From the IMG/VR virus record IMGVR_UViG_3300035698_005399, positions 1 to 64,000 of that record: a DNA stretch of 64,000 nt. One strand, written 5' to 3'. Source of the DNA: a virus. The notes below the pieces were generated by a model, which searched no databases, had not been told where the DNA came from, and was given only the letters and a program-made list of their open reading frames with translations. Below are positions 4,867 to 36,192 of this stretch, one piece after another; position 1 is the first letter of the stretch, and each line of letters opens with the position of its first letter. A program made the translations under genes and the position numbers.

Positions 4867-5146
4867 GCTTAAAGAAATATTTGATGGATGGGCTAATGTT
4901 GCAAAAGAACGCTTTAATACATTAGACCCAGCCATTAAACTTGAAGCTGAGCAAAGATTAGAACATTGCGATAGATGCTATATGCGAACAAACAATAAGT
5001 GTGATACATCTAAAGTAGGAGTACATCTAGAAACAGGTATTAAAACTAAGGGTTGTGGTTGTAACTTATCAGCTAAGTCACTATCACCATGCTCAAAATG
5101 TCCATTGGGTATATGGAATAAAATGAAAGCTTGTGATGACATTTGA
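4859..5146 (+). CDS. Cys-rich putative zinc-binding protein
   Basis: R..C..C...C...GCGC.L.AK......CP.G.W motif. Confidence 0.7.
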   Translation: MSKLKEIFDGWANVAKERFNTLDPAIKLEAEQRLEHCDRCYMRTNNKCDTSKVGVHLETGIKTKGCGCNLSAKSLSPCSKCPLGIWNKMKACDDI

Positions 5147-5627
5147 AAAAGCATACGAATTTATTGCACAATGGGAAGGTGGATATGTTAATGATCCAGA
5201 TGATTTGGGTGGAGAAACTAAATATGGTATAACCAAACGTAGATATCCACATCTTAATATTAAAACCTTGACTAAAGCAAAAGCTACAGAAATCTATCAT
5301 AAAGATTTCTGGTTACTTAGTAAAGCTGATAAACTACCATCAGAACTTAGATTATTACATTTTGATTGTGCTGTTAATCAAGGACCATATACTGCAGCTA
5401 GGATGCTACAAATGGCCATTAATGAAGAAGAAGTTATTATTGATGGTAATATTGGGCCGATAACATTAAATCATGCTCATTTAGCTACTCCAGACGCATA
5501 TGCTTTTTATAGAGCGTTAAGATATATGGAGATAACAGGATATAGACCAGTCAATGTAAAGTTCATTACTGGTTGGAAAAATAGATTAGAAGATTGCTTA
5601 GATGCGACATATGAAAATTTAAATTAA
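5136..5627 (+). CDS. Endolysin, glycoside hydrolase family 108 with peptidoglycan-binding region
   Basis: EGGYVNDPDDLGGETKYGIT signature, FDCAVNQG, DGNIGPIT, GWKNR. Confidence 0.92.
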   Translation: MTFEKAYEFIAQWEGGYVNDPDDLGGETKYGITKRRYPHLNIKTLTKAKATEIYHKDFWLLSKADKLPSELRLLHFDCAVNQGPYTAARMLQMAINEEEVIIDGNIGPITLNHAHLATPDAYAFYRALRYMEITGYRPVNVKFITGWKNRLEDCLDATYENLN

Positions 5628-5812: not shown

Positions 5813-5813
5813 T

Positions 5814-6359
5814 ATGGCTAAAATATTTATAATCCAAGAAGGAACACCATACTTTACGGCAGCAGCAATGCAAGTGCCAAAGTTAAAGTCTTTAATTGAT
5901 AAGTTCCCAGATGACTATGATAAGTATGCAGCATACCTATATCATATGACTTCTCCCACTTCCACCTACTTTGATTATGGTCCTGAAAAGGAAGAAAAGA
6001 TCTTAGATGATTTTGCTCCAGAACTTAAAGGTAAAAAGTTACATAAACTAATACCTGAATGTATGGCAGAACTACATAGTTTCAAAGCTGCAGAAATGCG
6101 ATTATTAGAATCAACTTTGATTGCTTGTGATAAAATTGGACAATATTTAGAATCAGTTGATTTTAGTGAAGCTGATGAACATGGTAGATTGATACATAGT
6201 CCTACCCAAGTTATGAACTCACTAGGTAGAATTGGTACATTAGTAGAAGGTTTGGCTAAAGTTAGAGAACAAGTTAAAAAAGGACTCCAATCACAAGAAG
6301 AATACTATGGAGATAGAGAACTTAATATGTTTGACCAAGTAAAGGAAACTAATGAATAA
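5814..6359 (+). CDS. Protein upstream of TerL, possible terminase small subunit
   Basis: Helical 181-aa ORF, TAATG-coupled to TerL. Function inferred from position. Confidence 0.55.
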   Translation: MAKIFIIQEGTPYFTAAAMQVPKLKSLIDKFPDDYDKYAAYLYHMTSPTSTYFDYGPEKEEKILDDFAPELKGKKLHKLIPECMAELHSFKAAEMRLLESTLIACDKIGQYLESVDFSEADEHGRLIHSPTQVMNSLGRIGTLVEGLAKVREQVKKGLQSQEEYYGDRELNMFDQVKETNE

Positions 6360-12479: not shown

Positions 12480-13994
12480 ATGAATTTTACAATGCCAGGT
12501 CTGAAGCCAACTGTTATTACAGATGGTTTAGGAGGAAACAGTTTTAATGCTGCTCACCTTGTTCGTACTTACGGTGCTGATGTCCCTCACGAGATGTCAT
12601 ACAACGCAACCAACATGGCGCAGTTGTTTTCTGCAACAGACAGATACAATGACAAACCAATGCTTTCTATGACGGAAGCAAAAGGTAAGAAAGTATATTT
12701 GACCAACAACACTTATACTTGGAAGCTTAAAGGTCATCAAAAACAAAAGCTTCGTGTAGTAGAGAATATTGAAACCGGAGTTAGACCAGGTGAGCAATTC
12801 GGTGAATTCCGCGTTGTACTGGATAGAGCTTGGTTTAAATACCCTGATGTTTTGATTGGAGAGAATAATAACTATCCAATTGAAGTAGTAGGCAAGCCTA
12901 AAATGAGAGGTACTGGATATGAGTATACAATGAAGCTACAAACTTCTGATCCTACTCGCTATCTTCCAGCTACTCTTTTAGAAGTAGGTTGTGAATTTAC
13001 AAAAGTTTCTACTGCAATTCCAGAAGAAATGAACTCTGATTACGGTACAATGCAGTTTAACTCTGTATTCGAACTTCGTAACCAATTAGGTTATGTTGCT
13101 GAGAAAGTTGAGTTTACTGATCGTATGCTAAGAGTTGACAAGAATTCTACCAATGGATCACAGTGGAGACACTGGAGAGTACCTTATTTAGATAGTAATA
13201 ATAAAGTTCACATGAACTTCATGCCTATGGCTGAAGCAGAAATGTGGAACCAATTATATTCAGATATCGAATGGGGTCTTAACTATGGTAGAGCAAGTAC
13301 GGAAAGAGCACCTAATGGTTATCTTAAGCGTACAGGTCCAGGTTGGAGAGAACAGTTTGAATTTGCAAACACTCTATTCCATAATGGTAACTTAACCCTA
13401 TCTCGTCTAGACGAATGGTTGAGCAGCATTTACAGAGGTCGTAAAGACGCAAGCCCGCAATCGCGTAAACTTGTTCTAATGACTGGTGAAATGGGTGCTC
13501 TTATGTTCGATAGAATGGTAGCATCTGATGCATCTAGCTTCTTTACATTGGATACACATTTCCTTAGTGGTAATGATCCAAGACACCTTAGTTTTGGTGC
13601 ACAATTCACGCATTATCGTGGTAAGAATGGTCTTGACGTAACAGTCATGTTGAATCCTCAGTATGATGATCCAGACCTTTGCCCACAAATGCACCCAATT
13701 TATACTGATACTACAATTGACTCTTGGAGAATGGACATCTTTGACTTCGGTGCAAGTGTTCAAGATACAAGCGCATTAGGTAGTAACATCAAAATGGTAT
13801 GTGAGCAATACGCTGACCATTACTTTGTTTCGACAGGTAAGTGGAATCCTAAGACTGGTATGCCTATCAATGATGGCGCAGAAGGCCTTGCTGGTGGTGT
13901 AGGCGGTTACTCCGTACAAGCAGAAAAGAGTTATGGTCTAATGATTGAAGACATCTCAAGATGTGGAACAATCCAACTTAGATTCGATAGCTAA
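12480..13994 (+). CDS. Major capsid protein
   Basis: 504 aa, YTWKL, RTGPGWREQ, LMTGEMG, LSFGAQFTHY. Followed by a strong hairpin; synteny supports the call. Confidence 0.9.
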   Translation: MNFTMPGLKPTVITDGLGGNSFNAAHLVRTYGADVPHEMSYNATNMAQLFSATDRYNDKPMLSMTEAKGKKVYLTNNTYTWKLKGHQKQKLRVVENIETGVRPGEQFGEFRVVLDRAWFKYPDVLIGENNNYPIEVVGKPKMRGTGYEYTMKLQTSDPTRYLPATLLEVGCEFTKVSTAIPEEMNSDYGTMQFNSVFELRNQLGYVAEKVEFTDRMLRVDKNSTNGSQWRHWRVPYLDSNNKVHMNFMPMAEAEMWNQLYSDIEWGLNYGRASTERAPNGYLKRTGPGWREQFEFANTLFHNGNLTLSRLDEWLSSIYRGRKDASPQSRKLVLMTGEMGALMFDRMVASDASSFFTLDTHFLSGNDPRHLSFGAQFTHYRGKNGLDVTVMLNPQYDDPDLCPQMHPIYTDTTIDSWRMDIFDFGASVQDTSALGSNIKMVCEQYADHYFVSTGKWNPKTGMPINDGAEGLAGGVGGYSVQAEKSYGLMIEDISRCGTIQLRFDS

Positions 13995-22238: not shown

Positions 22239-24874
22239 TGGCACTACACATAGTATCGGGAGTAGAAACAATTAACTCAACTACATCTTATCCAGATGGA
22301 ATTTCAATTCCGACTGGTACAACATTAATCCTTGAAGATGGCACTGATCTAGATACACCATTTATTAATATAACAGGAACATTATCCGCCACAGGAATTG
22401 GCGTAAATGATTCAGTTAAAATTAAATTGGCTGGAGATAGAGCTGTACCAACATCTGGCAATGATCCTACAGAAGGTAGAATTATGGTTATGACTGGTGG
22501 TAATCTTTTATTAAAAGGACCAGATGCTAATCTCAAAACACCATTTACTAGATTACTTAGTACAGTTAATATAACAGATGATACAATTGTAGTCGGCGGC
22601 GTAATTGGATGGAAGGTAGGAGATACTCTTGGTATCTCGCAATCTACAATGTATGCATGGGAAACTGAAGAAAGAACTATTATCGGAATTAGTATTACTG
22701 CTGGTGTATATACTCTTACATTAAACTCAGCTTTATATTATTCCCATTATGGCTCAAACAGTTCTACGTATGATATTACCACAAATGGTAAGACAAAAAC
22801 TATGGATGTCCGTACAGTTGTATCTAACTTAAGCAGACCCATTGAAGTATATACAGATGCTGCTGATGCATATGGTGCTCATATTATGAAAATGACTGAT
22901 GCTAATTCATTAGTATTAATAGGAACACAACTAAGCAGACTAGGTATGAGTGAGCCATCTACATTTCCTTATCAGCCATTTGGAGATACTGGTGGGCCAT
23001 ATGATAGATTTGATTCGCCTTCTGGATCAGGTTTACCTGGAAAATATAGTGTTCATTGGCATCACAATGGAGATAATTCTATTGGAGACTATTGTAAAAA
23101 TGTTGTTACATATCGAAGTAGACATAAGTCATTTGTAATTCATGATTCAAATGGTGTTCTATTAGAAGACAATGTTGCTTATAGAGGATGGAATCATCAA
23201 TTCAGTCTTGGTGAAGATGGTAGAGCACAAGATTGTGTAGTCAATAGAAACTTAGTACAATACTTTAGAAGGATGTACAATGGTAGTGATCCCGGCACAA
23301 ATGATACAGACTTCGCATTTAAATCTAATGGTGGCTCTCTAAGAGAAAATAGAGTTGCCGGTGGGTCATGGCAAAATGAAATGCACCCCGGTGCTTTTTG
23401 GATTACTACACCCAGTATTACTATGAGAGATAATATTGTCTCTGGTGGTATTGCTGGTATTGGTTTCTATTTTGATTTTGTAGGTTCCAGAGATGATGGT
23501 ACATTCTTAGAATTAGATCCTTCTGTTGAATATGATACTATGATTTTTGAAAGAAATCAAGCATCTAGTATTATTGCTGAAGGCGGTCATAAATTTGGAA
23601 CCACAAATGATCTTATACAAGGTATAAATTATACCAGTGTTGCAATTGGATTTTCATATAGAACTTCTGGTTTTGCATTGTGGATGGATCAATTTGATCC
23701 TGATAGACCTACTACTGGAAGAGGCAGCTTTGAATATCTAGTGAATGATTTTAAAGCTTATTCTTGTACTGGGTTTGTTTGGAGTGAATCACCAGCATTT
23801 AGATTAAGTGATTTTGCAGGATTCCATATTGGAACTGCAGGAATGGCAATGGGTGGTTTTTGGGAAGACGGTGTAATACTTAAAAGAGATCTTCTTAAAG
23901 AAGATGAATCTATTATTGCGGATACTAGAAATCCTGCACTACATCCAAACTTTGGAAATTTGAGTGATGATACTGCTCATTATGAAGGATACTTTTTAAA
24001 TAGAGGTCTAGTATCTGGTGCTACAGTTTTAACTGATATGACTAATGTTCGTACTGCAGCATTTAATGTATGGAGTACAGATAAAACTGGTGGTATGAAA
24101 TTATTCAAACGCATGCATAGCATTAAGAATGTATATGTTGATGGATATATAAATTATATTAGAATTACTCATGCTCACGAAGGACCATTTTATTTAACCG
24201 ATTGGAACATTGATAATAAAGATCCGAACTTAAATGCTACATTTGATAGAAGTGATATTGTTGTAGATTTGGGCCAAGATGGTTTAGGTAATACTGATGG
24301 TTTAACTTCTGGTAAAGGTCCAGCACCACATTCACAAACAAGTGATGACGGTCAAATTAAATACCAAAGCACTAATCAATTTAATGCTGGCCTATTTGAC
24401 TTAGATAATAATTTATTATATACTGGTGATGGTACTACTCTCGCTGCAGATAAATACTATGTTGTTCGAGTAACTTCTAGATCATCTGATGTATTAGGTA
24501 TAATTGCTAATAAAGCAGATGGTGCTGCTACATGGTATGATACTAATCATGCTCTTACTTATAGACAAGTACATGAGATGTATGATATTTCTTCTACAGC
24601 AATTAAAGCAATTGGTTCTAATTTAACATATACTTCTTCCGCAGTAGATATACAAATAGACGCATATGGTTCGTTCGATGGAGCAGAAGCTACTATTAAT
24701 AGTAATGCTGTTACATATAATGCAAACAACTATAGAGACGGATTTAATGTTAATTATCTCTTGGGAGATGTGCAACCCCCAGTAGGTACTAATAACGCAA
24801 CGAATGTTTTTGCTGCAGACTTATATGTTGATAGCATAATCATAAATACAGTTTCAACACCATTATTCACATGA
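22238..24874 (+). CDS. G8-domain plus parallel beta-helix protein (CEMIP/TMEM2/fibrocystin-like), putative tailspike depolymerase
   Basis: GWKVGDTLGI, ETEERTI, LYYSHYG, VSNLSRPI, YGAHIM, GKYSVHWHH, VIHDSNGVLLEDNVAY, AFWITTP. Confidence 0.8.
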   Translation: MALHIVSGVETINSTTSYPDGISIPTGTTLILEDGTDLDTPFINITGTLSATGIGVNDSVKIKLAGDRAVPTSGNDPTEGRIMVMTGGNLLLKGPDANLKTPFTRLLSTVNITDDTIVVGGVIGWKVGDTLGISQSTMYAWETEERTIIGISITAGVYTLTLNSALYYSHYGSNSSTYDITTNGKTKTMDVRTVVSNLSRPIEVYTDAADAYGAHIMKMTDANSLVLIGTQLSRLGMSEPSTFPYQPFGDTGGPYDRFDSPSGSGLPGKYSVHWHHNGDNSIGDYCKNVVTYRSRHKSFVIHDSNGVLLEDNVAYRGWNHQFSLGEDGRAQDCVVNRNLVQYFRRMYNGSDPGTNDTDFAFKSNGGSLRENRVAGGSWQNEMHPGAFWITTPSITMRDNIVSGGIAGIGFYFDFVGSRDDGTFLELDPSVEYDTMIFERNQASSIIAEGGHKFGTTNDLIQGINYTSVAIGFSYRTSGFALWMDQFDPDRPTTGRGSFEYLVNDFKAYSCTGFVWSESPAFRLSDFAGFHIGTAGMAMGGFWEDGVILKRDLLKEDESIIADTRNPALHPNFGNLSDDTAHYEGYFLNRGLVSGATVLTDMTNVRTAAFNVWSTDKTGGMKLFKRMHSIKNVYVDGYINYIRITHAHEGPFYLTDWNIDNKDPNLNATFDRSDIVVDLGQDGLGNTDGLTSGKGPAPHSQTSDDGQIKYQSTNQFNAGLFDLDNNLLYTGDGTTLAADKYYVVRVTSRSSDVLGIIANKADGAATWYDTNHALTYRQVHEMYDISSTAIKAIGSNLTYTSSAVDIQIDAYGSFDGAEATINSNAVTYNANNYRDGFNVNYLLGDVQPPVGTNNATNVFAADLYVDSIIINTVSTPLFT

Positions 24875-26673
24875 GCGTAGTATTCACATTCAACAATGTA
24901 GTAGTTGATAAAACCAAGAACATTTCCTTAATTGAAAATGGTTACTCTGAAGATATCCAGAATATATTTGGATTCTCTTTACAAGCATCTTTAGAAAGTA
25001 CTTCAATAGGAACATTGGGCAACTATTTTCCTGATTCATCTGATGCACAAGCTATATTAACTGATTTACCAAGTCCTACATTTAGAACTCCTGGTGGAAC
25101 AGATAGCTGGGCTACTTCTAGAAATGCTTCATATAATGGCGGAGGTAGTAGATATTTTGTTGATAATAATATTATGCCATTTGAAAGTAATGTTGTAGGC
25201 AATGTTATATATGACAATTCTATTGAAAAGGATAAAGTAGATAAATCTATTGATGATGAATTACAACCACACAATTTCTTTTTAAAATTTGAAGCTGGTA
25301 TTGCTAGTATTAATGATTCTGGAAGCCACTCTTATGTAATTAATTATCATACTGATTGGAATGGTAGTAGCTATGACACAACTGAAATAGATGCTGCTTT
25401 AGCAATTGGCATATATGATTATGTAGAAATAGGAAACGAATTGAATGCTACAGGGTATGAGCTTACTTTTCCTACTGCAGATGAAACTTCTGAAGGCGGG
25501 CATGGATGGGATGTTGCAACACAAGATTATATCCAACAAAATAGAGATTTCTATAGAGATAGAACTACTTATTTGGAAACCCAAAAAGGAACTTACGCTA
25601 ATTTAAAGATACTAATGACGGCACCACCGCCACAATTTCTTTTATATCAGAAATTTAATGTCCCTCAAACATCATGGTCTAAAACTATTATTAGACAAAA
25701 AGATTTTGTAGAAAAACTAGTAGCGGACCTTACCACTGGAGCTACTGTAATTGATGGATGGATTCATCATATCTATAATCAAGTAGGAGACTTTCTCTCT
25801 ACTAGTACTCAGGGCACTCCTCCGGGAGTAAGAGATCCAAGTCAAACAATGGTTGAAAACGCATTAGCTTTTGTTAGTAAAGTAGATGTGTCAGGCCAAC
25901 TAATTGGAGATTATCCTTATCATGGACTTAAAGGAAATTATGTAGAATACATTTTAAGGAATTACATTACTCCATATGAAGAAGCTTATCCAGGATTAGA
26001 CCATACAGTTACTGAATGGGCTTTTTCAAATGGTGGCACAGGTACAGTAGACACCATGCTTGCTGCAGCCAATGTAATGAAGTACTTATTGGCCTTCAAT
26101 AGAATTAATGAAGTTATTGATGGTAAGATAACACTAGCAACATATCAAAAGTTTCTTTCTAAACCACCAGAACAACGTGTAGCAAACGATAGAGCCTATG
26201 CTTTATCAGTTATGTTTCCAGCACAAGCAACTAATTTCTGGAAGACTGCTGCTATTTATACAGCTACTGACTTTCAACCAAGTGTAGAACTTCAAGTATT
26301 CAAATTATTCAAGTCTGTAGAAGGCGGTACATTTATTGGAACCACAAAACATCTAGGCGATAACACAAGTTTAGTCATGGATGAAGATGTTGCTATTGAA
26401 CTATTTGAAGATAGTAGTAATAATCAATGGTTATACTACGTTAATGTAACAGATGAAGACATTACAATTAACATGTCTGGAACAAATACTTATGTTCAAG
26501 GTGACGGTGCAGCAGGCTTCTCTGCGAATTCAATCGCAGACGAATGGGTATCAGGCACTTATGCATATGATGGTATCAGCGCAGAGGTAACAAACTACCC
26601 AATGATTTCAATTAATTCTGTTGGTTCAGATAACACTTTAAGGGCAAGAACTGTAGGAAGAATTGAACTTTAA
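24871..26673 (+). CDS. Clan GH-A glycoside hydrolase (GH79/GH51/GH44-like)
   Basis: FRTPGGTDS, YVEIGNEL (acid/base), HHIY, VTEW (nucleophile). Confidence 0.75.
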   Translation: MSVVFTFNNVVVDKTKNISLIENGYSEDIQNIFGFSLQASLESTSIGTLGNYFPDSSDAQAILTDLPSPTFRTPGGTDSWATSRNASYNGGGSRYFVDNNIMPFESNVVGNVIYDNSIEKDKVDKSIDDELQPHNFFLKFEAGIASINDSGSHSYVINYHTDWNGSSYDTTEIDAALAIGIYDYVEIGNELNATGYELTFPTADETSEGGHGWDVATQDYIQQNRDFYRDRTTYLETQKGTYANLKILMTAPPPQFLLYQKFNVPQTSWSKTIIRQKDFVEKLVADLTTGATVIDGWIHHIYNQVGDFLSTSTQGTPPGVRDPSQTMVENALAFVSKVDVSGQLIGDYPYHGLKGNYVEYILRNYITPYEEAYPGLDHTVTEWAFSNGGTGTVDTMLAAANVMKYLLAFNRINEVIDGKITLATYQKFLSKPPEQRVANDRAYALSVMFPAQATNFWKTAAIYTATDFQPSVELQVFKLFKSVEGGTFIGTTKHLGDNTSLVMDEDVAIELFEDSSNNQWLYYVNVTDEDITINMSGTNTYVQGDGAAGFSANSIADEWVSGTYAYDGISAEVTNYPMISINSVGSDNTLRARTVGRIEL

Positions 26674-26698
26674 TGTTAAAAATATTGTTATAATAGTT

Positions 26699-26995
26699 AT
26701 GGAAAACATTACACTTTCAAAAAGAAGCCAAGAAAAAATTCAATCTTTAATTGATAATAAAGATGGATTGGTAAAAGAATTACAAGACAAGGTTCAAAAG
26801 AACTATCAAGAAAATTTAAATGACCTTGAAAAAAGATTCTCTAGTCAGCTAGAAGCATTTATCAATGGCATTGTTAGTCAGTTGGCTGATGATGATGGAG
26901 AATATGTTCTAACTAAAGAAGAGGATGAATTTGTCTTAAAACCTAAAACTCCAGAAGATGGCGATATTCAGCACGACGATAAGCAAAGCGAGTAA
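26699..26995 (+). CDS. Small coiled-coil hypothetical protein
   Basis: ATG at 26699, downstream of a TGnTATAAT-like element. Confidence 0.6.
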   Translation: MENITLSKRSQEKIQSLIDNKDGLVKELQDKVQKNYQENLNDLEKRFSSQLEAFINGIVSQLADDDGEYVLTKEEDEFVLKPKTPEDGDIQHDDKQSE

Positions 26996-27518
26996 TTGTG
27001 ATACAGTTACATTAACAGATACATTTACCAGTGGGGCATTTAAGCTTACTGGTTTTTCTGCTGTATCAGCAGAACTAAATGTATATAGTCATCTTGCATT
27101 AACAACAATTACAACATACGATGTTATTGATGATACTATAGCAGGTGCTTATGGCACATTAACAATTAGTGGCGATGACTTAATAGTAACTACATCAGCT
27201 TTCGCAGATGGTATTTGGTTCTTTGAATTCGAATATACGTATACTGATGTTACATTAAAAACTGAAACCGTATGTATATGTATTAATATTGATTGCGACA
27301 TGCAACAAGATATTGTACAAAACATTAATACAAGATCTTTAACTACAGCAACCAATTGTGATACTTGTGATGATGATTCTTCATTACCTATTAAGTATCC
27401 AATGATGCACCATGCATTAGAGATTGCAGTAGAATGCCAACTGTGTGAAAAAGCAATTGATATTTTTGATTACTTGACATACAAAGTTGATTCAAATCAA
27501 GATTGCTTAGGATGTTAA
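26958..27518 (+). CDS. Putative tail hub / fibre attachment protein
   Basis: Ig-like N-terminal half (DGIW.FEF.Y) and Cys-rich helical C-terminus. Synteny with the crAss-like tail module. Confidence 0.55.
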   Translation: MAIFSTTISKASNCDTVTLTDTFTSGAFKLTGFSAVSAELNVYSHLALTTITTYDVIDDTIAGAYGTLTISGDDLIVTTSAFADGIWFFEFEYTYTDVTLKTETVCICINIDCDMQQDIVQNINTRSLTTATNCDTCDDDSSLPIKYPMMHHALEIAVECQLCEKAIDIFDYLTYKVDSNQDCLGC

Positions 27519-27712
27519 CACTTGAAAACTATACACTAAAACAACTACGGTTACAATACCCAACCGAATATAAAAAACAAATAGTTGATTTTGCCACACA
27601 ATATATTTATTACGAAATGTATGGTTTGGAATCAAAATCAGAATTAATTTATGACTGTCTTGTTGAAAATACAGGATTGAATTATTTTATAGAAAACTAT
27701 GCATTACTATAA
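27512..27712 (+). CDS. Hypothetical protein
   Basis: Short coupled ORF. Confidence 0.55.
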   Translation: MLTLENYTLKQLRLQYPTEYKKQIVDFATQYIYYEMYGLESKSELIYDCLVENTGLNYFIENYALL

Positions 27713-27714
27713 CA

Positions 27715-28071
27715 ATGACATCAATTTTATTAACAGCGACAGAAATATTAACCTATCTACCAGAAGGCATATTTGGATTAATAATTATTCTCTTAGTAAT
27801 TGCTATTAGAGAATTATGGCAAAAAATTAATAAAAAAGAAGATTCGATTGCTATTTTAAATAGAGAACATACAAAACAAATGGCAGCAAAAGATCAACTA
27901 TATAAAGAAGCATTAGAGCATGTATTATTAGGATTAAAAGAATCCAACGAAATTGTTCATAAAATTACAATGAATATTAGTACAATGAACAAACCATTAA
28001 GAGAAGATATAGCAGATCATGATAAACGAATATATACTCTAGTAACAGAAATTAAAAGCCTTATAAAATAA
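27715..28071 (+). CDS. Single-pass membrane protein with coiled coil (holin- or antiholin-like)
   Basis: Hydrophobic GIFGLIIILLVIAI followed by RELWQKINKK and a heptad region. Confidence 0.65.
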   Translation: MTSILLTATEILTYLPEGIFGLIIILLVIAIRELWQKINKKEDSIAILNREHTKQMAAKDQLYKEALEHVLLGLKESNEIVHKITMNISTMNKPLREDIADHDKRIYTLVTEIKSLIK

Positions 28072-28532
28072 TGACCTATCAAAAAGAAATAGCAGAACAA
28101 ATAAGTGATCTTATAGAAAAAAAAGGACTATTAGAATTATCTTATAAGGCATCTCAGGCATTCATTCAAGCTACCAAAGTATACTTGGTTATTTCAGATG
28201 CAAATGGCGGAAGGTTTATATGGATTAATCCAACATTAAAAGAAAAACTTGGTTTTGGATTCAAAGAACTAACTGAAAATAAAGCTATAGATTTTATTCA
28301 TCCTGATGACGTACAAGCTACTATTAATGCACAAAATAAATTATATGGGAAAACAATTTCTCCTGTAGACGGATTTACAAATAGATACATTACCAAAAGA
28401 AAAAAAATTATTTATATTGAATGGGTTGAAAATATTCGTTTAAATGGTACATGGTTTTCTATTGCAATTGATTCAACTGAAGATAAGTATGTTGAACAGA
28501 AAAAACTATACCCTGAGTTATGGCAAGATTAA
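28071..28532 (+). CDS. Stand-alone PAS domain protein
   Basis: VISDANGGRFIWINPTLKEKLGF...EL......DFIHPDD......FTNRYITK..KIIYIEW is a canonical PAS/PAC pattern. Confidence 0.85.
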   Translation: MTYQKEIAEQISDLIEKKGLLELSYKASQAFIQATKVYLVISDANGGRFIWINPTLKEKLGFGFKELTENKAIDFIHPDDVQATINAQNKLYGKTISPVDGFTNRYITKRKKIIYIEWVENIRLNGTWFSIAIDSTEDKYVEQKKLYPELWQD

Positions 28533-29122
28533 AAAGAAAAAACAGAATAGATACTGTCGTAGTAGAACCTGTTATAACAGAGCCTACTGAAGATGCTCCA
28601 TATGGCTATAAGAAGTCTGGTAAAGCTAAGAAACCACCATTAAAGGATAGAGAAGGCTGGCAGAAGTTTAAGGATGTCTTTCCTGATATAGGGGCAGGCA
28701 TTTTTGATATTGCAGGAAACTTCATTCCGGGTGCAGATTCTATTGCTGATATGATTAGAGGATTAGATGGACCCTCTGAAGAAGATAAAGCAGCGGCATT
28801 AGCTTATGCTAAGCAACTAGAACTAGACATGTTTGAAGCAGAAGTTAAAGATAGGGATTCTGCTAGAACAATGAACACAGAGTCTTTAAAATCCATAGAC
28901 TCATTTGTTAGAAGATTTCCATATTACTTAGCAGCAGGTGTACTTTTGATAGCTATGGTATTCATGGGACTAATTCTATTTGGAGGATTTATTATTGTGG
29001 GTGATGTAAGCTGGATGATTGTAGGCACACTGATGTCTGGATTCACAACCATTCTTGCATTCTTCTTTGGTAGCTCAATTGGTTCTAAGATGAAAGATGA
29101 GAAAGATAATATATTTAGATAA
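28520..29122 (+). CDS. Holin-like membrane protein (3TM/GTA holin-like)
   Basis: EVKDRDSAR, two C-terminal transmembrane helices, FFFGSS.GSK.KD tail. Confidence 0.75.
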   Translation: MARLKRKNRIDTVVVEPVITEPTEDAPYGYKKSGKAKKPPLKDREGWQKFKDVFPDIGAGIFDIAGNFIPGADSIADMIRGLDGPSEEDKAAALAYAKQLELDMFEAEVKDRDSARTMNTESLKSIDSFVRRFPYYLAAGVLLIAMVFMGLILFGGFIIVGDVSWMIVGTLMSGFTTILAFFFGSSIGSKMKDEKDNIFR

Positions 29123-29898
29123 TGAAACACACGGTAGAAACAACAAGGGAAATATTGGAAGAAACATTTAGCCAGTTAGTATTTGAAGAGGAGTTTCATA
29201 CATACACTATAGGTGACAGAACATTACCCAGTGTATCAAAAAAACTTACAAGATTTTATGATGCTTTTGATTCAGATAAAGTAGCATTCTATTATACAAA
29301 GAAATGGAATAAAAATAATCCAAATGAACAAAAGACAAAAGAACAAGTACTCCAAGAATGGAAAGATAAAAGCACTATTGCATTGGATAAAGGAAATGAA
29401 GTTCACGATTATGCTGAGTACTATCCTAAATTTCCAGAACCCGCCTACCTCGAACAAAGGGGTATCCTTGAATTCTTTAATAACTTACCCGATCATTATG
29501 AAGTAGTTTATGTTGAGCTTAGAATGCACAATGATAGATTTGCAGGAACAGCCGACTTAATTCTATTGAATACAAAAACTAATAAACTAGTTATTGTAGA
29601 TTGGAAAACCAATAAGGATTTGTTTAAAAACTTTAAACGTAAGAAATTATTATATCCTTTTGAAGGATTATTAGATGCTCCTATTAATCGTTATAAGATT
29701 CAACTGAATCATTATAAAATGTTAATAGAAGACATGACTGTCTTTGAAGTAGAAGACATGTGGGTTGCTTGGTTAACACAAAAAGAAGATCCTACCAGAA
29801 AAGCTAAATATATTGGAGAGAATTACATCCTATATAAGGTTTACAACTGGAGTAAAAAACTAAAAAGGTATTATGAGCAGCTTGAAATCCATATCTAG
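29122..29898 (+). CDS. PD-(D/E)XK nuclease (RecB/Cas4-like exonuclease)
   Basis: KGNEVHDYAE, VELRM, AGTADLI, IVDWKTNK, YKIQLNHY. Confidence 0.85.
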   Translation: MKHTVETTREILEETFSQLVFEEEFHTYTIGDRTLPSVSKKLTRFYDAFDSDKVAFYYTKKWNKNNPNEQKTKEQVLQEWKDKSTIALDKGNEVHDYAEYYPKFPEPAYLEQRGILEFFNNLPDHYEVVYVELRMHNDRFAGTADLILLNTKTNKLVIVDWKTNKDLFKNFKRKKLLYPFEGLLDAPINRYKIQLNHYKMLIEDMTVFEVEDMWVAWLTQKEDPTRKAKYIGENYILYKVYNWSKKLKRYYEQLEIHI

Positions 29899-30586
29899 TC
29901 ACACCGATGCAATTAGAGCATTAGTTAAAGAAACATCAGATGATTCAATTTATTCTGATGAATTTTTATATAAGCTATTAGTTGATAGTAGAGCAACTAT
30001 CCTTAGTCAAGAAATTACAAAGTATAAGTATATTTCTCAAGATAACTATCAGAGATTTTGCATGCCGCTTGATTCTACTAAGAATTCAGATTGTATAGAT
30101 TGCTTACCTATAGAAATTGCATGCGCAGGATTAGAAAATGTTTGGAAGAGTAGATATAAAATGCCTCTAGTAATTACTGGTAGAGATAAAGCTATGCTAT
30201 CAACATATAATGTAGATTTTACAATAAGTCTATCACCAAGTAACATGGAGCAAAGAAGTCTGCAGGAATATTCTAAAGTAAATCCTAATAGGGTTTCTTA
30301 TGAAATGAATAATAACAGCTTCTTCTTATTTAATAGAGACTGGCTTGTTGTACAGTTTAAAGGAATTTTTCATGATCCATCTGAATTAAGTGATATTAGA
30401 GTATGTAATACAGAAGGTGTTGAAGGTGGAGGAAATTGTTTTGACCCAGACACAGACCATTTTCCATTAGATCCTACCTTGAACGATAGAGTTTATAAAT
30501 TCGTATTAGAAAAATTAGGATACTCCAAACAAATTCCAGATGACATTACTAATGACGGTAAATCTTCAATAAGCAATGAAGTCTGA
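29873..30586 (+). CDS. Tail ring protein
   Basis: SDDS........L...RA.......Q.FC.PL, GIFHDP, FPL, PDDITND. Synteny before IHF, ring and muzzle genes. Confidence 0.7.
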   Translation: MSSLKSISSHTDAIRALVKETSDDSIYSDEFLYKLLVDSRATILSQEITKYKYISQDNYQRFCMPLDSTKNSDCIDCLPIEIACAGLENVWKSRYKMPLVITGRDKAMLSTYNVDFTISLSPSNMEQRSLQEYSKVNPNRVSYEMNNNSFFLFNRDWLVVQFKGIFHDPSELSDIRVCNTEGVEGGGNCFDPDTDHFPLDPTLNDRVYKFVLEKLGYSKQIPDDITNDGKSSISNEV

Positions 30587-30998
30587 AACACTAACTACAG
30601 CCAAAACATATAAGACCTATCAAGGTAAGCTTTCTAAAGAAGAGTACCTTACTATTAACGATAAGTTTAATAATATTCTTTTTGAAGAATTATTACACAC
30701 AGGAGATGCTATTACTTTACCCAAAGGAATGGGCCAACTGCAAGTTGTAAAGTTCAAGCCTACTAAGAAGCGAGCTGTAGACTTCAATGCAACCAAAAAA
30801 TATGGTAAAACTATTTACCATGATAATGTAGAAACTGATGGATATGCTGCTAGATTACACTGGCATAAAAAGTCTTATCGTTTTAAAAATAAGTATTTTT
30901 TTAGTTTTAGATTTACAAGACATCGTGTTAGATATGATGATTTCTCACTAACAAAATACATTAGAGAAAATGGTTTATACCACCTAACTGAGTTATGA
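30576..30998 (+). CDS. IHF/HU-like protein of the tail module
   Basis: LPKGMGQLQVVK...VDFNATKK..K.IYH.N.ETDGY.....W, as in the crAss-like tail-module IHF. Confidence 0.75.
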   Translation: MKSETLTTAKTYKTYQGKLSKEEYLTINDKFNNILFEELLHTGDAITLPKGMGQLQVVKFKPTKKRAVDFNATKKYGKTIYHDNVETDGYAARLHWHKKSYRFKNKYFFSFRFTRHRVRYDDFSLTKYIRENGLYHLTEL

Positions 30999-31831
30999 CA
31001 AAAACCGTACAATACGTTCCATTAGAGGCTACACTACGACCAGTATATACTACGCTACCCAGCAGTAACATTGAATTTGATACCATCTTAGAATGGGCCT
31101 ATGATGCAATGGAAGCTATTGAAGTTAGATATACCTTCCAAGAAAATGTCGAATTCCTACAAGTTGTCAACCATAGAGCTATGGTGCCAGTTGGTTTAAA
31201 GTATATTGAACAATTACTATACAAGCTTAGTCTTGATAATGATGAAGAAGAAGTAATCTTGGACATCCTTAGACAAGACCAAGATGGTAATAATGAAACA
31301 CCAACCACAACTGCAGATCAATACTTCTTATCTCCTATAGTAAGAAGTAGCTGGAGTCCGCTTAGAGCTAGTACCAGCATCTGGACTAGACAAGTGCATT
31401 GTGCAGTTAGCCCAAATTTATATGCTACATCTGAACATGAATATACAATAGATCCAGGCGGTTGCATTACTACATCCTTTGAAGATGGGTTTATAGCAAT
31501 CGCTTGTTTGTCTCATCCTAAAAATTCCCAAGGTCAATTCCTTGTTCCTGATGAGAGAGATTATAGAAGGGCTGTTGAAAATTATATTCTATTCAAATAT
31601 TGGGAGCTTAGATATAATATGAAAGAAGAAGGCGCAGATAAAAGAATGATGTATTACCAACAACAATGGGATATATTTGCTGCTAAAGTATCTGGAGATC
31701 TTATGTTATTCTCTTTAGATGGTTTACAGAACTTCCAAGATCAAATGTTACGTATTGGGCCAAACACAGATAGCTACCACTCAGGATATGGAAATTTAGG
31801 TAGAAGAGAAGTGACAAAATTTCATAACTAA
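30995..31831 (+). CDS. Tail ring / tubular adaptor protein
   Basis: ILEWAYDAM, V.NHRA.VP, ITTSFEDG.I.I.....P....G..LVPD. Confidence 0.75.
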   Translation: MTKTVQYVPLEATLRPVYTTLPSSNIEFDTILEWAYDAMEAIEVRYTFQENVEFLQVVNHRAMVPVGLKYIEQLLYKLSLDNDEEEVILDILRQDQDGNNETPTTTADQYFLSPIVRSSWSPLRASTSIWTRQVHCAVSPNLYATSEHEYTIDPGGCITTSFEDGFIAIACLSHPKNSQGQFLVPDERDYRRAVENYILFKYWELRYNMKEEGADKRMMYYQQQWDIFAAKVSGDLMLFSLDGLQNFQDQMLRIGPNTDSYHSGYGNLGRREVTKFHN

Positions 31832-34800
31832 TGAATAATTTCAGTCAAGGAATGAATAGAGATGCAGGAGACAAGTTTAGGCCAAATTCATCTTGGCCTT
31901 TCGCATTGAATGCTGTTAATGTATCTCGTGATGGAAATAAATCTTCTATTATAAATGAAGAAGGTAATAAAACTTGTGGTGATTTACCAGAAGGATTTGA
32001 TATCATTGGCCATGCTGAATCTAATTCAGACCTGACCTATTTATTTTTAACTGATAATACAGTAAGTATAATTGCCACTATTGATAATAATTGCAATTAT
32101 AATGAAATTGTTAGAAGTTCTTGTTTAAATTTTAAAGATTATCATGCTATCGATGCTCAATATAAAGAAGTAGATGGTTGTGAACCAGCTTTATATTGGG
32201 TAGATAATTTCAATTTAGATAAACAAGTTAATATTGCTGAACTTAGAACATACATTGATAATGATGCATTAGCAACTGCTTGGTTTGCTGCTAATGGTAC
32301 ACCATTACCCAAAAGTTTTAAAGATGGATTTTATATTCAACAAGCAAATATATATGATGCTTGGAATTGTAATGCATTTAAACAAGTTAAAGATATTAAA
32401 GTTCCTGTAATTACATTCAATAAAATGCTAGATTCAGGTGGACAATTAGAAGCAGGTGCTTATCAAGTTGTTGTTAGATACATTGATTTAGATGATAATA
32501 GAACAGATTGGTTTGCTCCTACATTACCTGTACCAATTATTGATGAGGATTATAATGGTCCTTATACATGTATTGATGGATGCCTAGCAGGTACAACTAC
32601 TAGTAAAGCACTTGAATATAATATTACTAATATAGATACATCATATCCTTATTTTGAAGTAGCTTATATTCATACTAGTGAAAATGTTGAAACTGCTTAT
32701 ATTGAAAGTAAGAATTCTACATTTAGTCTGACATTTTTACTTACTGGTACTGCAGAAGAACAACTTGATGTAGTTGATATCAATGTATCTACTGCAAAGT
32801 GGGCAGTGAGTAAAGGATTAATACAACATCACAATAAATTAATTAAATATGGTGTAAAGGAAAGAGATATTGATCACACGGCTTTTACTCGTAGTGCATT
32901 AAATATTAAAAGTAGATATTGGATATCTGATGTAGATCATGATCATAAAGAATTTGGTATTAAAACACCATATTATTACTCTAGAACTAGAGGTTATATG
33001 CGAGATGAAGTATATGCTTTTGCTGTAGTTTGGGTATTTAATGATGGTTCTAAAACAACACCTTATCATATTCCTGGTAGAGCTAAAGATACAACTTCAC
33101 AAGGAGTCGTAATGGGATATACAGGATTATTAAATACAAATGCTGGTGCCCATATAACAGGTGAATGGGATAGTACAACATATAGTGATGCATCATCTTT
33201 CACAGGATGGTCTGCAGAAGACATTAAATATCTTCAAGACCAAGGTTATTCCGATACTGAAATTGAAAGATGGATGGTTTATAATACCGCATTACCAGAT
33301 GATACCCCCGCATCTGGTACTAATGGCTCAGGAGAGCTGGCCTTTTACGAATCCAAGGATTACACATATCCTGAAATCACTTCGTGTGATGGAACCCGCG
33401 TATACGAGCAATTGTCTGGTACACCAATTCGCTACCATAAAATGCCTGATGCTACTCTTGAGCCGTTACACTATCAAGATACTAATGATAATAATAATTT
33501 ACTAACTAGAAGTTTAGGTATGGAATTTGATAATGTAGTACCCCCAGTAGAATATGCAGATCAAATCCAAGGTTATTATATTGTACGAGCTAAAGTTACA
33601 CCAGAAAATCAAAGCATTATCTCCAAAGGAGTAATGTGGAATACTACTTATGTTGATCCATCATCAAATTTAAGATTTCCAAGACCTACTTACTGGTGGA
33701 CTAGAAAAATAGCAACTACATTTGGTATTTCTGATTCTGAAAGAACCCATACTGAATTCTGGAGTAATGAATCAACATTTAATTCAGATGATTTGTCTAA
33801 AGCATCTCATTTTAAAATGGAAAATGAAATTTCGGGAGACAGAGGCGTTGTTTATTTAGGTAGTTGTGATGTTGGTGCTAGAGTAGCATTTCAGGATACT
33901 ACATTTAATAAAAATCCATTAACTCCATCATACGGACATACCAATAGATCATTTAATACTAGTGGTTATCTTCCATTAAATTCCATTATTTCAGATTTCT
34001 TTGGAGAAAATTTTTATAATGTAGGAAGAGAAACCAAATATCTTGTTCAATTTGAAGATGCCTATAGGCCACAAAGTCCTATAATATCTTCATCAGATAA
34101 TTATGGAACCAATGAGACATTTGGTTATTATACTGCGGCTAAACAATTTCTACCAAATCAATATGGGAACATTGATGGTTTAATATACTACTCTTGTAGT
34201 ACTATGCATTTAGCTACTGATCCTTTATATCATTTTAGAAGAATATTTGGTGGAGATACATTTATTAGTGAATTAAATTTTAGAAGATTTCAAGGTGAAA
34301 ACCCTGCAGATTTTGATTTTAGTGGTTTGAGTGGATCTTGTGCTAGTCGTTCAGATATTATGGTAAGAGTAAATGCCGGATCTCATACTAAGTGCTATAC
34401 TGAATCTAGAATTAATGCTGATCTACGGCATACATTAGGAGCAATAACAGTTGTAAATGATTCTAGTGGTGATCCAACTAATGTAGATGATGGGTATTTA
34501 CCAAAAGCCATTTGTAAAAAATTACCATTTGACACAGATGATTACTATACAGAACAAATTGCTAAAGCTTGGGAAGTAGATAATACGTTTGAATATAATT
34601 CAGATTTTTCAAAAGAAAACGAATTGCTTCCAATATTTCCATTAAGTTTTACATTTGATTATTGTTCAGATTGTCAGGCCGAATATCCATATAGATTTGT
34701 ATGGAGTCAATCTGCATTTGGTCAAGAGCAAGTAGATAACTATAGTGTGTTCTTAGCTAATGATTTTAAAGATATTCCTCAACATAAAGGAAGACTTGAA

Positions 34801-36192
34801 ACAGCATTTATTAAATCACATCAGTTATATTTCTTAACTGAGCAAGCATTATTTATGCAACCTACTGATGATCAAGCCTTACAGACAAATGAAAATGTTT
34901 TATACGTGGGCTCAGGAGCCTTTGGTAGACTTGATCCTAAAGAAGTAGTAAGTACTGATTATGGTTTTGCTGGTAGTGTTAGCCAATGGGCTGTAAAGAC
35001 TACTGATGCCGGAACCTTCTGGCCTGATATTAATCAAGGTAAAGTATTTGTGTTATCCAATCAATTGAACGCCATATCAGAAGTTGGTATGGAATCATGG
35101 TTTACAGAAAAAATGAATAATTCATTTGCTAATGCTTGGGAAAATAATGCTGGTAAACCATATCCTCTAGCTGATACACCACAAGCTTATAATGGTGTTG
35201 GTGCACAAATTAGTTATGACTTAAGATACAGACGACTCATATTAACATATAAAGACTGGGAAATTACACCTAGAGCACAAGCTCTAATTGGTAATGGTAA
35301 TCTAATTTATAATTTAGAAACAAGTAAATTTGAATTACTTGTACCTGATGCACTAATTGGTTTAGTGGGGAATAATAATCCTACTGAAATATCAACCAGT
35401 AAATTTGCAGAAAGTACGGACGAAACATCAGAAACTCCACAAGCATTTGGTACTAGAGTATATGCCAGCTTTAATGTTGATGATATTAAAGAATACTTCC
35501 AGAACAAAAGCTTTACTGTAAGCTACAGTATGCATACCAATACATGGATTAGCTTTCATAGTTATATTCCATCTTATATCTTTAATACCAATCAATTTTT
35601 CTTTACATCTGCTAATAATGGATTATGGAAGCATGATGAAAGAAATTTCCAAACTTTCTATGGCATCAAGAAAGACCATATCATTGAATATACACATACA
35701 AGTAGTTTCCAAACACAGAAGTATGATAGTATTCATTATGTATCTGATGTACAAGACTATGATACAGCATTGAAGTCTTGGAAAGATGTTCCTGCTATTA
35801 CGTTTGATAAAGTGATTGTATATACAGATACACAATCTACTGGTAAAACAGATATTATCAATGGTAGTGATAGTTACATTGAAGAACTCACATACAACCC
35901 AGATAACATTACTGTACACAGGCATGATAGAACATGGAAGATGAATAAGATTAGAGATATGGTTGTGGACTATACTGTACCACTCTTTAGACTTAACGCT
36001 GCAGCATTAGAAGCTGATTACTTTATTGATAAAGTTCCTAATACAGCAGCTACATCAAGCACTAAAGATATCTATGAACAAGGTAGAATCAGGAATAAAT
36101 TTTGCAATACCAGATTGTTCTTTAATCCATTGAATGACTATCGTATTGTAACAGATATTGTAACAACAATGACTAGAAACTCTATTCGTTAA
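31831..36192 (+). CDS. Muzzle / tail stabilisation protein
   Basis: FSQGMNRD, NEEGN, LYWVD, GYMRDEVY.FAVV, IFGGDTFI, WISFHSY.P; 1453 aa. Confidence 0.85.
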   Translation: MNNFSQGMNRDAGDKFRPNSSWPFALNAVNVSRDGNKSSIINEEGNKTCGDLPEGFDIIGHAESNSDLTYLFLTDNTVSIIATIDNNCNYNEIVRSSCLNFKDYHAIDAQYKEVDGCEPALYWVDNFNLDKQVNIAELRTYIDNDALATAWFAANGTPLPKSFKDGFYIQQANIYDAWNCNAFKQVKDIKVPVITFNKMLDSGGQLEAGAYQVVVRYIDLDDNRTDWFAPTLPVPIIDEDYNGPYTCIDGCLAGTTTSKALEYNITNIDTSYPYFEVAYIHTSENVETAYIESKNSTFSLTFLLTGTAEEQLDVVDINVSTAKWAVSKGLIQHHNKLIKYGVKERDIDHTAFTRSALNIKSRYWISDVDHDHKEFGIKTPYYYSRTRGYMRDEVYAFAVVWVFNDGSKTTPYHIPGRAKDTTSQGVVMGYTGLLNTNAGAHITGEWDSTTYSDASSFTGWSAEDIKYLQDQGYSDTEIERWMVYNTALPDDTPASGTNGSGELAFYESKDYTYPEITSCDGTRVYEQLSGTPIRYHKMPDATLEPLHYQDTNDNNNLLTRSLGMEFDNVVPPVEYADQIQGYYIVRAKVTPENQSIISKGVMWNTTYVDPSSNLRFPRPTYWWTRKIATTFGISDSERTHTEFWSNESTFNSDDLSKASHFKMENEISGDRGVVYLGSCDVGARVAFQDTTFNKNPLTPSYGHTNRSFNTSGYLPLNSIISDFFGENFYNVGRETKYLVQFEDAYRPQSPIISSSDNYGTNETFGYYTAAKQFLPNQYGNIDGLIYYSCSTMHLATDPLYHFRRIFGGDTFISELNFRRFQGENPADFDFSGLSGSCASRSDIMVRVNAGSHTKCYTESRINADLRHTLGAITVVNDSSGDPTNVDDGYLPKAICKKLPFDTDDYYTEQIAKAWEVDNTFEYNSDFSKENELLPIFPLSFTFDYCSDCQAEYPYRFVWSQSAFGQEQVDNYSVFLANDFKDIPQHKGRLETAFIKSHQLYFLTEQALFMQPTDDQALQTNENVLYVGSGAFGRLDPKEVVSTDYGFAGSVSQWAVKTTDAGTFWPDINQGKVFVLSNQLNAISEVGMESWFTEKMNNSFANAWENNAGKPYPLADTPQAYNGVGAQISYDLRYRRLILTYKDWEITPRAQALIGNGNLIYNLETSKFELLVPDALIGLVGNNNPTEISTSKFAESTDETSETPQAFGTRVYASFNVDDIKEYFQNKSFTVSYSMHTNTWISFHSYIPSYIFNTNQFFFTSANNGLWKHDERNFQTFYGIKKDHIIEYTHTSSFQTQKYDSIHYVSDVQDYDTALKSWKDVPAITFDKVIVYTDTQSTGKTDIINGSDSYIEELTYNPDNITVHRHDRTWKMNKIRDMVVDYTVPLFRLNAAALEADYFIDKVPNTAATSSTKDIYEQGRIRNKFCNTRLFFNPLNDYRIVTDIVTTMTRNSIR

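Follow-up and report, generated by a model that had tools for sequence, protein, structure and literature searches.

A stand-alone PAS protein encoded beside a TeaA-like holin, a candidate regulator of lysis in a crAss-like phage of Flavobacteriia

Three overlapping genes occupy positions 27715 to 29122 of the window, as we call the whole 64,000-nucleotide stretch of DNA that was analysed (positions 1 to 64,000 of the 83.5-kb IMG/VR record IMGVR_UViG_3300035698_005399). The sequence derives from salt-lake metagenomes and belongs to a crAss-like phage of Flavobacteriia. All three genes are on the + strand. ORF1 (27715..28071) encodes 118 amino acids with a single N-terminal transmembrane (TM) helix followed by a charged coiled coil, ORF2 (28071..28532) encodes 153 amino acids that are predicted to form a stand-alone PAS domain, and ORF3 (28520..29122) encodes 200 amino acids and is a putative holin of the TeaA family. 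ORF1 and ORF2 meet at the sequence aaaTAATGacc, where the stop and start codons share 1 nt. ORF2 and ORF3 overlap by 13 nt, with the ATG of ORF3 at 28520 and the TAA of ORF2 at 28530-28532. Direct reading of the sequence reproduced the coordinates and both junctions claimed in a preliminary description of this DNA, namely three overlapping genes joined by TAATG and then by a 13-nt overlap. Both junctions are also spanned by independent Logan contigs from salt-lake metagenomes, with at least 99% identity and no indels.

The triad is retained in a diverged related phage, represented by contig L083, where the gene order is unchanged and the overlaps are 8 nt and 13 nt. Amino acid identity between the two phages is 56% for ORF1, 46% for ORF2 and 72% for ORF3, and the dN/dS values are 0.28, 0.37 and 0.13, respectively. 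All three genes are under purifying selection. Synonymous change between the two phages is near saturation, yet the overlaps within the triad persist. The view that ORF1, ORF2 and ORF3 form a conserved, translationally coupled unit is supported. Scanning positions 24.5 to 32 kb for promoters and terminators with a sigma-70 model, which is a poor fit to Bacteroidota promoters, revealed nothing above chance.

ORF2 consists of an N-terminal helix, a five-stranded PAS core and a conserved C-terminal helix, with no other domain. Its AF2 model (pLDDT 78.5) has strands at residues 37-43, 48-52, 102-107, 113-124 and 127-134. Foldseek comparison of this model with the PDB returned 371 matches at E ≤ 1e-3. 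The top match was the PAS structure 8px4 (TM-score 0.85-0.87, rmsd 1.8-2.1 Å), followed by the PAS-B domains of HIF-2a/ARNT/AhR and by EcDOS. As a single sequence ORF2 scored 23.8-24.3 bits against Pfam PAS_3, just under the 25.6-bit cut-off. With phmmer, 9746 proteins were matched at E ≤ 1e-3 (best 1e-29), and the majority were sensors with several PAS domains. A five-sequence profile matched the PAS chains of ARNT, PER and BMAL1 in the PDB, the best E value being 1.4e-7 (ARNT). The structural model and these comparisons together mark ORF2 as a true single PAS domain of Pfam clan PAS_Fold. Neither a signal peptide nor an output domain was found in ORF2, and the protein is predicted to be cytoplasmic. 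AF2, Foldseek and phmmer thus agree with the original description of a PAS-only protein that has no kinase or DNA-binding output.

The sequence of ORF2 was also inspected for signs of what it might bind. It contains no Cys, so the adduct of a LOV or PYP domain is impossible, and no cofactor or ligand signature was evident in the alignment of stand-alone homologues. The only well-conserved His sits in the PAS_3 'hPdD' motif, and we take it to be an ordinary residue of that motif, not a haem ligand. In the five stand-alone homologues the invariant residues fall mainly in strands G-beta, H-beta and I-beta and in the C-terminal helix, the usual contact surfaces of PAS domains. Many PAS domains act through contacts only. 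Together with the missing cofactor signature, these features are consistent with ORF2 acting on the ORF3 holin as a fixed adaptor, chaperone or stoichiometric inhibitor, its PAS fold serving as a dimerisation or binding scaffold that senses nothing. However, outside phages the closest relatives of ORF2 are the PAS units of sensor proteins that carry several of them, and we consider a purely structural role of this kind unlikely.

ORF3 has approximately 125 soluble residues followed by two TM helices, as judged by hydropathy and AF2. Residues 1-85 are disordered and basic, residues 87-123 form a long amphipathic helix with the motif D-x-x-S-A-R, and the AF2 model shows a TM hairpin made of helices 128-154 and 161-183. 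The C-terminus contains an invariant FFFGSSxGSKxK motif, and the charged tail GSKMKDEKD follows the second TM helix. The predicted topology is N-in/C-in. BLASTP aligned ORF3 with TeaA of Vibrio phage ICP1 at 34% identity over 141 amino acids (E 3e-14). Experiments have shown holin activity for TeaA, and remote homology led to its assignment to PF11351 (PMC7182436). When 50,697 phage records were searched by tblastn, ORF3 matched Vibrio phages only, 82/83 of them ICP1-type, at the gene annotated 'teaA: holin' (32.6% identity to teaA over residues 61-193, E 7e-4). Among IMG/VR records 210 relatives of ORF3 were found, including the record of ICP1 (L026), and genome contigs contained no close relatives. 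In 41/60 distinct viral loci an endolysin gene lies at position -1 or +1 relative to the ORF3-family gene, while none lies at ±3 to ±6. Sequence homology places ORF3 in a holin family, as a homologue of the demonstrated holin TeaA. The homology with TeaA, the two TM helices and the linkage of the family to endolysins all bear out the earlier claim that the third gene encodes a holin-like protein with a long soluble N-terminus.

The relationship of ORF3 to the Pfam family GTA_holin_3TM (PF11351), whose holins come from gene-transfer agents and phages and which is described as 'Holin of 3TMs, for gene-transfer release', is more distant. Members of that family have three TM helices, whereas hydropathy and AF2 place two in ORF3. 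Weak PF11351 matches were obtained for 6/69 ORF3-family members (best E 1.7e-4), and the neighbours of ORF3 in the ESM Atlas and BFVD are labelled GTA_holin_3TM. ORF3 itself gave no PF11351 match at E ≤ 1, nor when this genome alone was searched, and TeaA gave none at E ≤ 0.01. ORF3 was therefore filed as TeaA-like and PF11351-related, and not as a member of the Pfam family.

FpV21 and L035 are related flavobacterial crAss-like phages. The downstream edge of the holin slot in the window is a gene for a PD-(D/E)XK nuclease (29122..29898, + strand; Pfam PDDEXK_1, phrog_298), which is 36-37% identical to its orthologues in L035 and FpV21. In both of these phages Phage_holin_4_1 genes lie upstream of the orthologous nuclease-ring2-ring1-muzzle block. 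The L035 slot also holds a TeaA-like gene and a gene encoding a TM segment plus coiled coil. Comparison of these gene maps supports the view that the slot taken by the triad is one that holds predicted holins in related phages. The triad is located between tail-fibre/depolymerase genes and the genes for tail-ring, muzzle and cargo proteins, a position that would also suit a complex in the membrane that serves DNA entry or superinfection exclusion, is encoded in the tail/ejection block and has no part in lysis. We regard such a complex as very improbable given the homology of ORF3 to a holin of shown activity, the endolysin genes that adjoin other members of its family, and the Pfam holins that occupy the same slot in relatives.

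A gene for an endolysin with GH108 and PG_binding_3 domains (5133..5627, + strand; Pfam Glyco_hydro_108 4.3e-25, PG_binding_3 8.9e-8) lies 23 kb upstream of the triad. This enzyme was named alongside the holin in the preliminary description, but its gene does not adjoin the three ORFs. The teaA gene of ICP1, like the ORF3 gene, has no annotated endolysin beside it. The GH108 endolysin is soluble and lacks both TM and SAR segments, and no TM protein is encoded on either flank of its gene. Since the endolysin is soluble, a holin is needed. The only real membrane-protein candidates in the 83.5-kb record are ORF1, ORF3 and one 65-amino-acid ORF, and the GH108 endolysin is presumed to be the cargo of the ORF3 holin. 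CheckV estimated the completeness of the record at 45%, so the record is perhaps incomplete and other lysis genes may be out of view.

The lysis-inhibition cassette of ICP1 is composed of gp139, the antiholin ArrA and the holin TeaA (PMC7182436). The order gp139 (114 amino acids, TM plus coiled coil), arrA (151 amino acids) and teaA mirrors that of ORF1 (118 amino acids), the PAS gene (153 amino acids) and ORF3, and this parallel puts the PAS gene in the antiholin slot. gp139 resembles ORF1 in size, build, position and charge pattern. The resemblance does not extend to sequence, as hhalign detected no homology between ORF1 and gp139 (probability 0.15). Sequence comparison of ORF2 with antiholins covered ArrA, to which the ORF2 PAS profile showed no similarity (hhalign probability 0.28). 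ArrA crosses the membrane several times, whereas ORF2 is a predicted soluble PAS domain. The phages themselves also differ, ICP1 being a Vibrio myovirus and the phage that carries the triad a flavobacterial crAss-like podovirus, with unrelated hosts and phage types. Lysis inhibition in ICP1 responds to superinfection.

In ORF1 a combined TM and heptad heuristic places the TM helix at approximately residues 15-33 and a heptad-rich, charged helix after it. Homologues P0014 and P0015 are 60% and 56% identical to ORF1, and no relatives were found in IMG/VR. The TM helix is preceded by no K or R and followed by four basic residues (R32, K37, K40 and K41), a charge distribution that predicts an N-out/C-in topology with the coiled coil in the cytoplasm. 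An N-terminal TM helix followed by a coiled coil is also the build of i-spanins, and we wondered whether the triad could be a holin and spanin pair with an inserted PAS gene. Similar TM plus coiled-coil genes do recur upstream of TeaA-family genes, within three genes in 10/60 loci, and never within five genes downstream. On the other hand, the charges of ORF1 predict an orientation that is the reverse of i-spanins, and gp139 has a like pattern. Furthermore, a lipobox scan of all ORFs of at least 25 amino acids in the 83.5-kb record found no credible o-spanin lipoprotein, whether embedded, overlapping, nearby or elsewhere. It is improbable that ORF1 is an i-spanin. Nor did ORF1 prove to be the first of two holin-like genes flanking the PAS gene, as had been proposed. 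It has no homology to holins and appears instead to be a gp139-like protein with a TM helix and coiled coil.

Four lineages of stand-alone ORF2 homologues were found. Adjacency of the PAS gene and ORF3 is direct in L083. In three more stand-alone PAS lineages the contig sizes match those of contigs with ORF1 or ORF3 homologues, which suggests linkage; by this criterion the contigs that carry P0007 (103 kb), P0017, P0027 and P0168 are candidate triads. No PAS gene was located within 6 kb of the TeaA-family gene in the other loci examined (0/80), and FpV21 and two IMG/VR relatives likewise yielded no PAS gene. The pairing of PAS gene and holin is therefore known from one small lineage. The idea that PAS homologues are linked to lysis genes thus held for the close stand-alone homologues, which adjoin this holin in L083 and appear, from contig size, to accompany it in the three further lineages, and failed for the 80 other TeaA-family loci within 6 kb. 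No further stand-alone PAS relatives were recovered from the IMG/VR scan or from GTDB genome contigs, and tblastn against the 50,697 phage records gave none even at E ≤ 10. A PAS domain fused to a TeaA-type hairpin was seen neither among the best 150 PAS relatives nor in the 80 TeaA-family loci. No report of a PAS domain tied to a phage holin or antiholin was found in the literature searched.

The region between the tail-fibre and tail-ring genes could simply gather accessory genes. ORF2 might then be unrelated to lysis, for example a decoy that pairs with the PAS domains of host sensor kinases and disturbs host signalling from a gene in a permissive slot. The absence of the PAS pairing from the 80 other TeaA-family loci and from FpV21 is consistent with this idea, as is the faster evolution of ORF2 than of its neighbours (46% identity compared with 72%). 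So are the nearest non-phage relatives, which are PAS units of bacterial multi-PAS sensors, and the other small stand-alone phage PAS proteins contained in BFVD, which include proteins of the Cellulophaga phages phi19:1 and phi18:3. Conversely, the overlaps on both sides of ORF2 are conserved in L083 despite the near-saturated synonymous change, ORF2 lies within late structural-module transcription and not in an early host-takeover module, and it sits exactly in the ICP1 antiholin slot. A function outside lysis is not what we would expect for ORF2.

We tentatively favor, with confidence a little short of even, a reading in which the triad is a holin module that includes a PAS regulator located in the cytoplasm. 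ORF3 would be the holin, its two-helix hairpin set in the membrane and its long N-terminal arm in the cytoplasm, and through it the soluble GH108 endolysin would be released. ORF1 would be an accessory protein tethered to the membrane, with its coiled-coil helical domain facing the cytoplasm, like gp139 of ICP1. The preliminary description pictured ORF1 and ORF2 as a split membrane-anchored sensor, which they may be, the present results counting neither for nor against it. ORF2 would be translated immediately ahead of the holin, from a late transcript that both share. It would most likely bind the cytoplasmic arm of the holin, the coiled coil of ORF1, or both, and so shift the moment of hole formation as a cytoplasmic regulator of the antiholin type. 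The PAS core may sense a small molecule or a redox signal. In this model we infer the topology, the physical contacts, the direction of regulation and any sensing. A more specific version, in which ORF2 acts as an antiholin in the cytoplasm, responds to a ligand, redox state or light, reads the metabolic state of the flavobacterium, contacts both the holin arm and the ORF1 coiled coil, and thereby advances or delays hole formation, is possible but doubtful.

T4 RIII is an antiholin that acts from the cytoplasm, the location predicted for ORF2. In T4 triggering is delayed when a small phage-encoded protein attaches to a soluble domain of the holin, which is the concept proposed here for ORF2. 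The T4 holin T has the antiholins RI, which is periplasmic, and RIII (PMC11413866, PMC8385771). The T4 antiholins are not known to have a PAS fold, nor is the triad known to be homologous to T, RI or RIII. The holins are also built differently, that of T4 having one TM helix and a large periplasmic domain whereas ORF3 has a predicted TM hairpin and cytoplasmic arm. VqmA-Phi of vibriophage VP882, a phage protein with a PAS domain, couples the sensing of a small molecule to the lysis decision. It also has a DNA-binding domain, and its action is on transcription in a temperate phage, whereas ORF2, from the late holin module of a crAss-like phage, is without an output domain. To our knowledge the post-translational controls described so far (T4 RI/RIII, ICP1 ArrA and lambda S107) are either superinfection-responsive or built-in timers, and none has a general sensor fold.

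The moment of lysis determines burst size and phage fitness. If the PAS protein is coupled to the holin, lysis timed by an intracellular signal would have its first candidate in ORF2. Were it a responsive antiholin, a strictly lytic crAss-like phage would gain a signal-gated lysis clock that is independent of superinfection. The holins of crAss-like phages of Bacteroidota are, as far as we know, essentially unannotated, and the model, if true, would offer a first handle on lysis in this group. ORF3 belongs to phrog_1544, which PHROGs lists as unknown function. Placing phrog_1544 in the endolysin-linked TeaA holin family, as its homology suggests, is directly useful for annotation.

Three genes on the + strand, ORF1 (27715-28071), ORF2 (28071-28532) and ORF3 (28520-29122), lie in a densely packed, single-strand stretch (24871-36192) with no promoter or terminator signals above chance. 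ORF1 begins 2 nt after the preceding gene. The overlaps claimed in the preliminary description were borne out. Direct reading gave TAATG at the ORF1/ORF2 junction and a 13-nt overlap at the ORF2/ORF3 junction, and in four salt-lake runs independent Logan contigs span both at ≥99% identity without indels. The same gene order is found in L083, a 3801-bp JGI contig from a diverged relative, which carries a 69-aa gene, homologues of ORF1, the PAS gene and ORF3, and a nuclease. There the PAS homologue has a GTG start and an 8-nt overlap, and the ORF3 homologue again overlaps by 13 nt. Amino acid identities between the two are 56% (ORF1), 46% (ORF2) and 72% (ORF3), with dN/dS values of 0.28, 0.37 and 0.13, respectively, and synonymous change near saturation. 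These values show that ORF1, ORF2 and ORF3 are real genes under selection. Just upstream, a 186-aa Cys-rich protein (26958-27518) is kept in L083 (1198-1757) as two ORFs of 76 and 78 aa, a split that genuine decay, a frameshift or faulty assembly could each explain. The protein's start, MAIFSTTISKASNC, bears a weak resemblance to a lipobox, but a proper signal peptide is missing.

A tblastn search of 50,697 phage records with ORF3 matched Vibrio phages only, 82/83 of them ICP1-type, at the feature 'teaA: holin'. Pairwise BLASTP of ORF3 and TeaA, the ICP1 holin, gave 34% identity over 141 residues (E 3e-14). Hays and Seed (PMC7182436) showed that this holin dissipates the proton motive force and brings about cell lysis when triggered with dinitrophenol, and they placed it in PF11351 through remote homology. 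ORF3 and TeaA both fall below the Pfam PF11351 threshold; 6/69 ORF3-family members match it weakly, and structural neighbours of ORF3 in ESM Atlas and BFVD are labelled PF11351. By homology, then, ORF3 is assigned to the TeaA family of holins, in agreement with the earlier proposal of a holin-like protein with a long N-terminus, here an arm of 127 residues. In the AF2 model the basic N-terminus is disordered and is followed by a long helix (87-123) and a TM hairpin (128-183). The pair of TM helices and the lysine-rich C-terminus suggest that both ends lie in the cytoplasm.

ORF3 belongs to phrog_1544, listed in PHROGs as 'unknown function', and has relatives on 210 viral contigs in an IMG/VR scan. 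Genes were called in 80 fetched loci, 60 of them distinct, and endolysins were detected with HMMs for GH108, Peptidase_M15_3, M15_4 and GH19 built from Pfam-identified seeds. An endolysin adjoins the ORF3-family gene in 41/60 loci (-1 in 15, +1 in 26), lies at -2 in 1/60 and at ±3 to ±6 in 0/60. Since phrog_1544 includes the demonstrated holin TeaA and an endolysin is so often directly adjacent, its annotation could be upgraded. ESM Atlas neighbours of ORF3 residues 85-200 include a cluster of 336-aa bacterial proteins, 99% of whose members carry GH108 and 74% PG_binding_3. The predicted structure of the cluster can be aligned to the helix-hairpin of ORF3 (TM 0.68 by query), and the proteins may combine an endolysin with a fused TeaA-like membrane hairpin.

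ICP1 has the gene order gp139, arrA, teaA. In gp139 (114 aa) an acidic N-terminus leads into a single TM, after which come a basic stretch and a coiled coil. ORF1 (118 aa) has the same build, as expected from its description as a single TM plus coiled coil, and precedes ORF2 (153 aa) and ORF3 just as gp139 precedes arrA (151 aa) and teaA. The middle genes differ: ArrA is a multi-TM antiholin, whereas ORF2 is a PAS protein. Since neither ORF1 and gp139 nor ORF2 and ArrA have detectable sequence similarity, the parallel is limited to architecture and position. By a heuristic that misses even gp139, a TM plus coiled-coil gene recurs no more than three genes upstream of the TeaA-family gene in 10/60 loci, and within five genes downstream in none. 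The ORF1 homologue P0014 (123 aa) bears the JGI name 'predicted Holliday junction resolvase-like endonuclease'. As the protein consists of a TM helix and coiled coil and nothing more, the name was probably carried over wrongly from proteins whose N-terminus is similar.

ORF2 matches Pfam PAS_3 at 23.8 bits, just below the 25.6 cut-off. Exhaustive phmmer returned 9746 proteins at E≤1e-3, the great majority of them long sensors with multiple PAS domains, and a five-sequence profile matched PDB PAS chains of ARNT, PER and BMAL1. In the AlphaFold2 model (pLDDT 78.5) the PAS core has five strands and is flanked by one helix at the N-terminus and another at the C-terminus; Foldseek superposes the model on PAS domains (TM up to 0.87, rmsd about 2 Å). 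These results agree with the suggestion of one PAS domain without an output domain; a second domain, signal peptide and cysteine are all absent from ORF2. Four other stand-alone PAS lineages were found (P0016, P0017, P0027 and P0043/P0168; 151-161 aa, 35-43% identity), and the residues invariant across the lineages lie mostly in the last three strands and the C-terminal helix. No ligand could be inferred for the ORF2 PAS domain, which weakens a role in lysis control; that ORF2 is a non-sensing adaptor is unlikely. BFVD matches of the model include other small stand-alone PAS-fold proteins in Cellulophaga phages phi19:1 (240 aa) and phi18:3 (172 aa) and in several uncultured marine phages.

Sequence comparison identifies the window phage, whose stretch occurs in salt-lake metagenomes, as crAss-like. 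It encodes a Crassvirus major capsid protein (12480-13994), tail ring proteins 2 (29873-30586) and 1 (30995-31831), a 1453-aa protein in the muzzle position, cargo proteins and a giant protein of 4933 aa. Among cultured phages, its DNA-level relatives are limited to Flavobacterium psychrophilum phages of the genus Fipvunavirus. The nuclease downstream of ORF3 (29122-29898) has orthologues at 36-37% identity in the flavobacterial relative FpV21 and in locus L035. In FpV21 it is preceded by a Phage_holin_4_1 gene and a DUF7103 multi-TM gene. In L035 it is preceded by a Phage_holin_4_1 gene, a 201-aa gene, a TeaA-like gene and an 84-aa TM plus coiled-coil gene, and followed by genes of ring2-, ring1- and muzzle-like sizes. 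Because holin genes precede both orthologues, the three genes occupy the holin slot of this phage lineage. That they encode a non-lysis membrane complex is very improbable. The L035 cassette (4624-6566 of IMGVR_UViG_3300022841_000016), from a crAss-like relative, holds two distinct holin-family genes flanking the 201-aa protein, which has no Pfam match.

Several observations weigh against lysis control. The GH108/PG_binding_3 endolysin gene (5133-5627) lies beside packaging genes with no membrane protein next to it. Its start is overlapped by the gene for a 95-aa Cys-rich protein (4859-5146) with several CxxC-like pairs and neither a TM segment nor a Pfam match. The 83,494-bp IMG/VR record, of which the window is the first 64 kb, may be incomplete (CheckV estimate 45%), a further weakness, and no spanin pair was found in it. 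A 65-aa ORF outside the window (76851-77048, - strand), in the replication-side module, has two strong hydrophobic helices; besides ORF1 and ORF3 the record has no further candidate for a small membrane protein, which makes this ORF an alternative candidate for a class II-type holin or pinholin. The proposed linkage of PAS and holin genes stood only in part. L083 keeps PAS beside its ORF3 homologue, but every other sampled TeaA-family gene lacks a PAS within 6 kb, and searches of FpV21 and two IMG/VR relatives found none, which confines the pairing to one small lineage. That ORF2 is an unrelated accessory protein or a decoy for host signalling is unlikely.

A holin module with a PAS regulator is our tentative reading, somewhat short of an even chance; a literature search found no paper in which a PAS domain is tied to a holin or antiholin of a phage. 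The positive-inside rule would place the coiled coil of ORF1, ORF2 and the ORF3 arm all on the cytoplasmic side, so contacts among them are physically possible. An N-terminal extension of ORF3 with AP[YH]GYKKSGK is common to the window, L083, where PAS linkage is direct, and the close relative P0008, where contig size points to linkage. The extension is also present in P0005, and is absent from the close relative P0007 and from more distant TeaA-family members. The motif is a candidate docking site.
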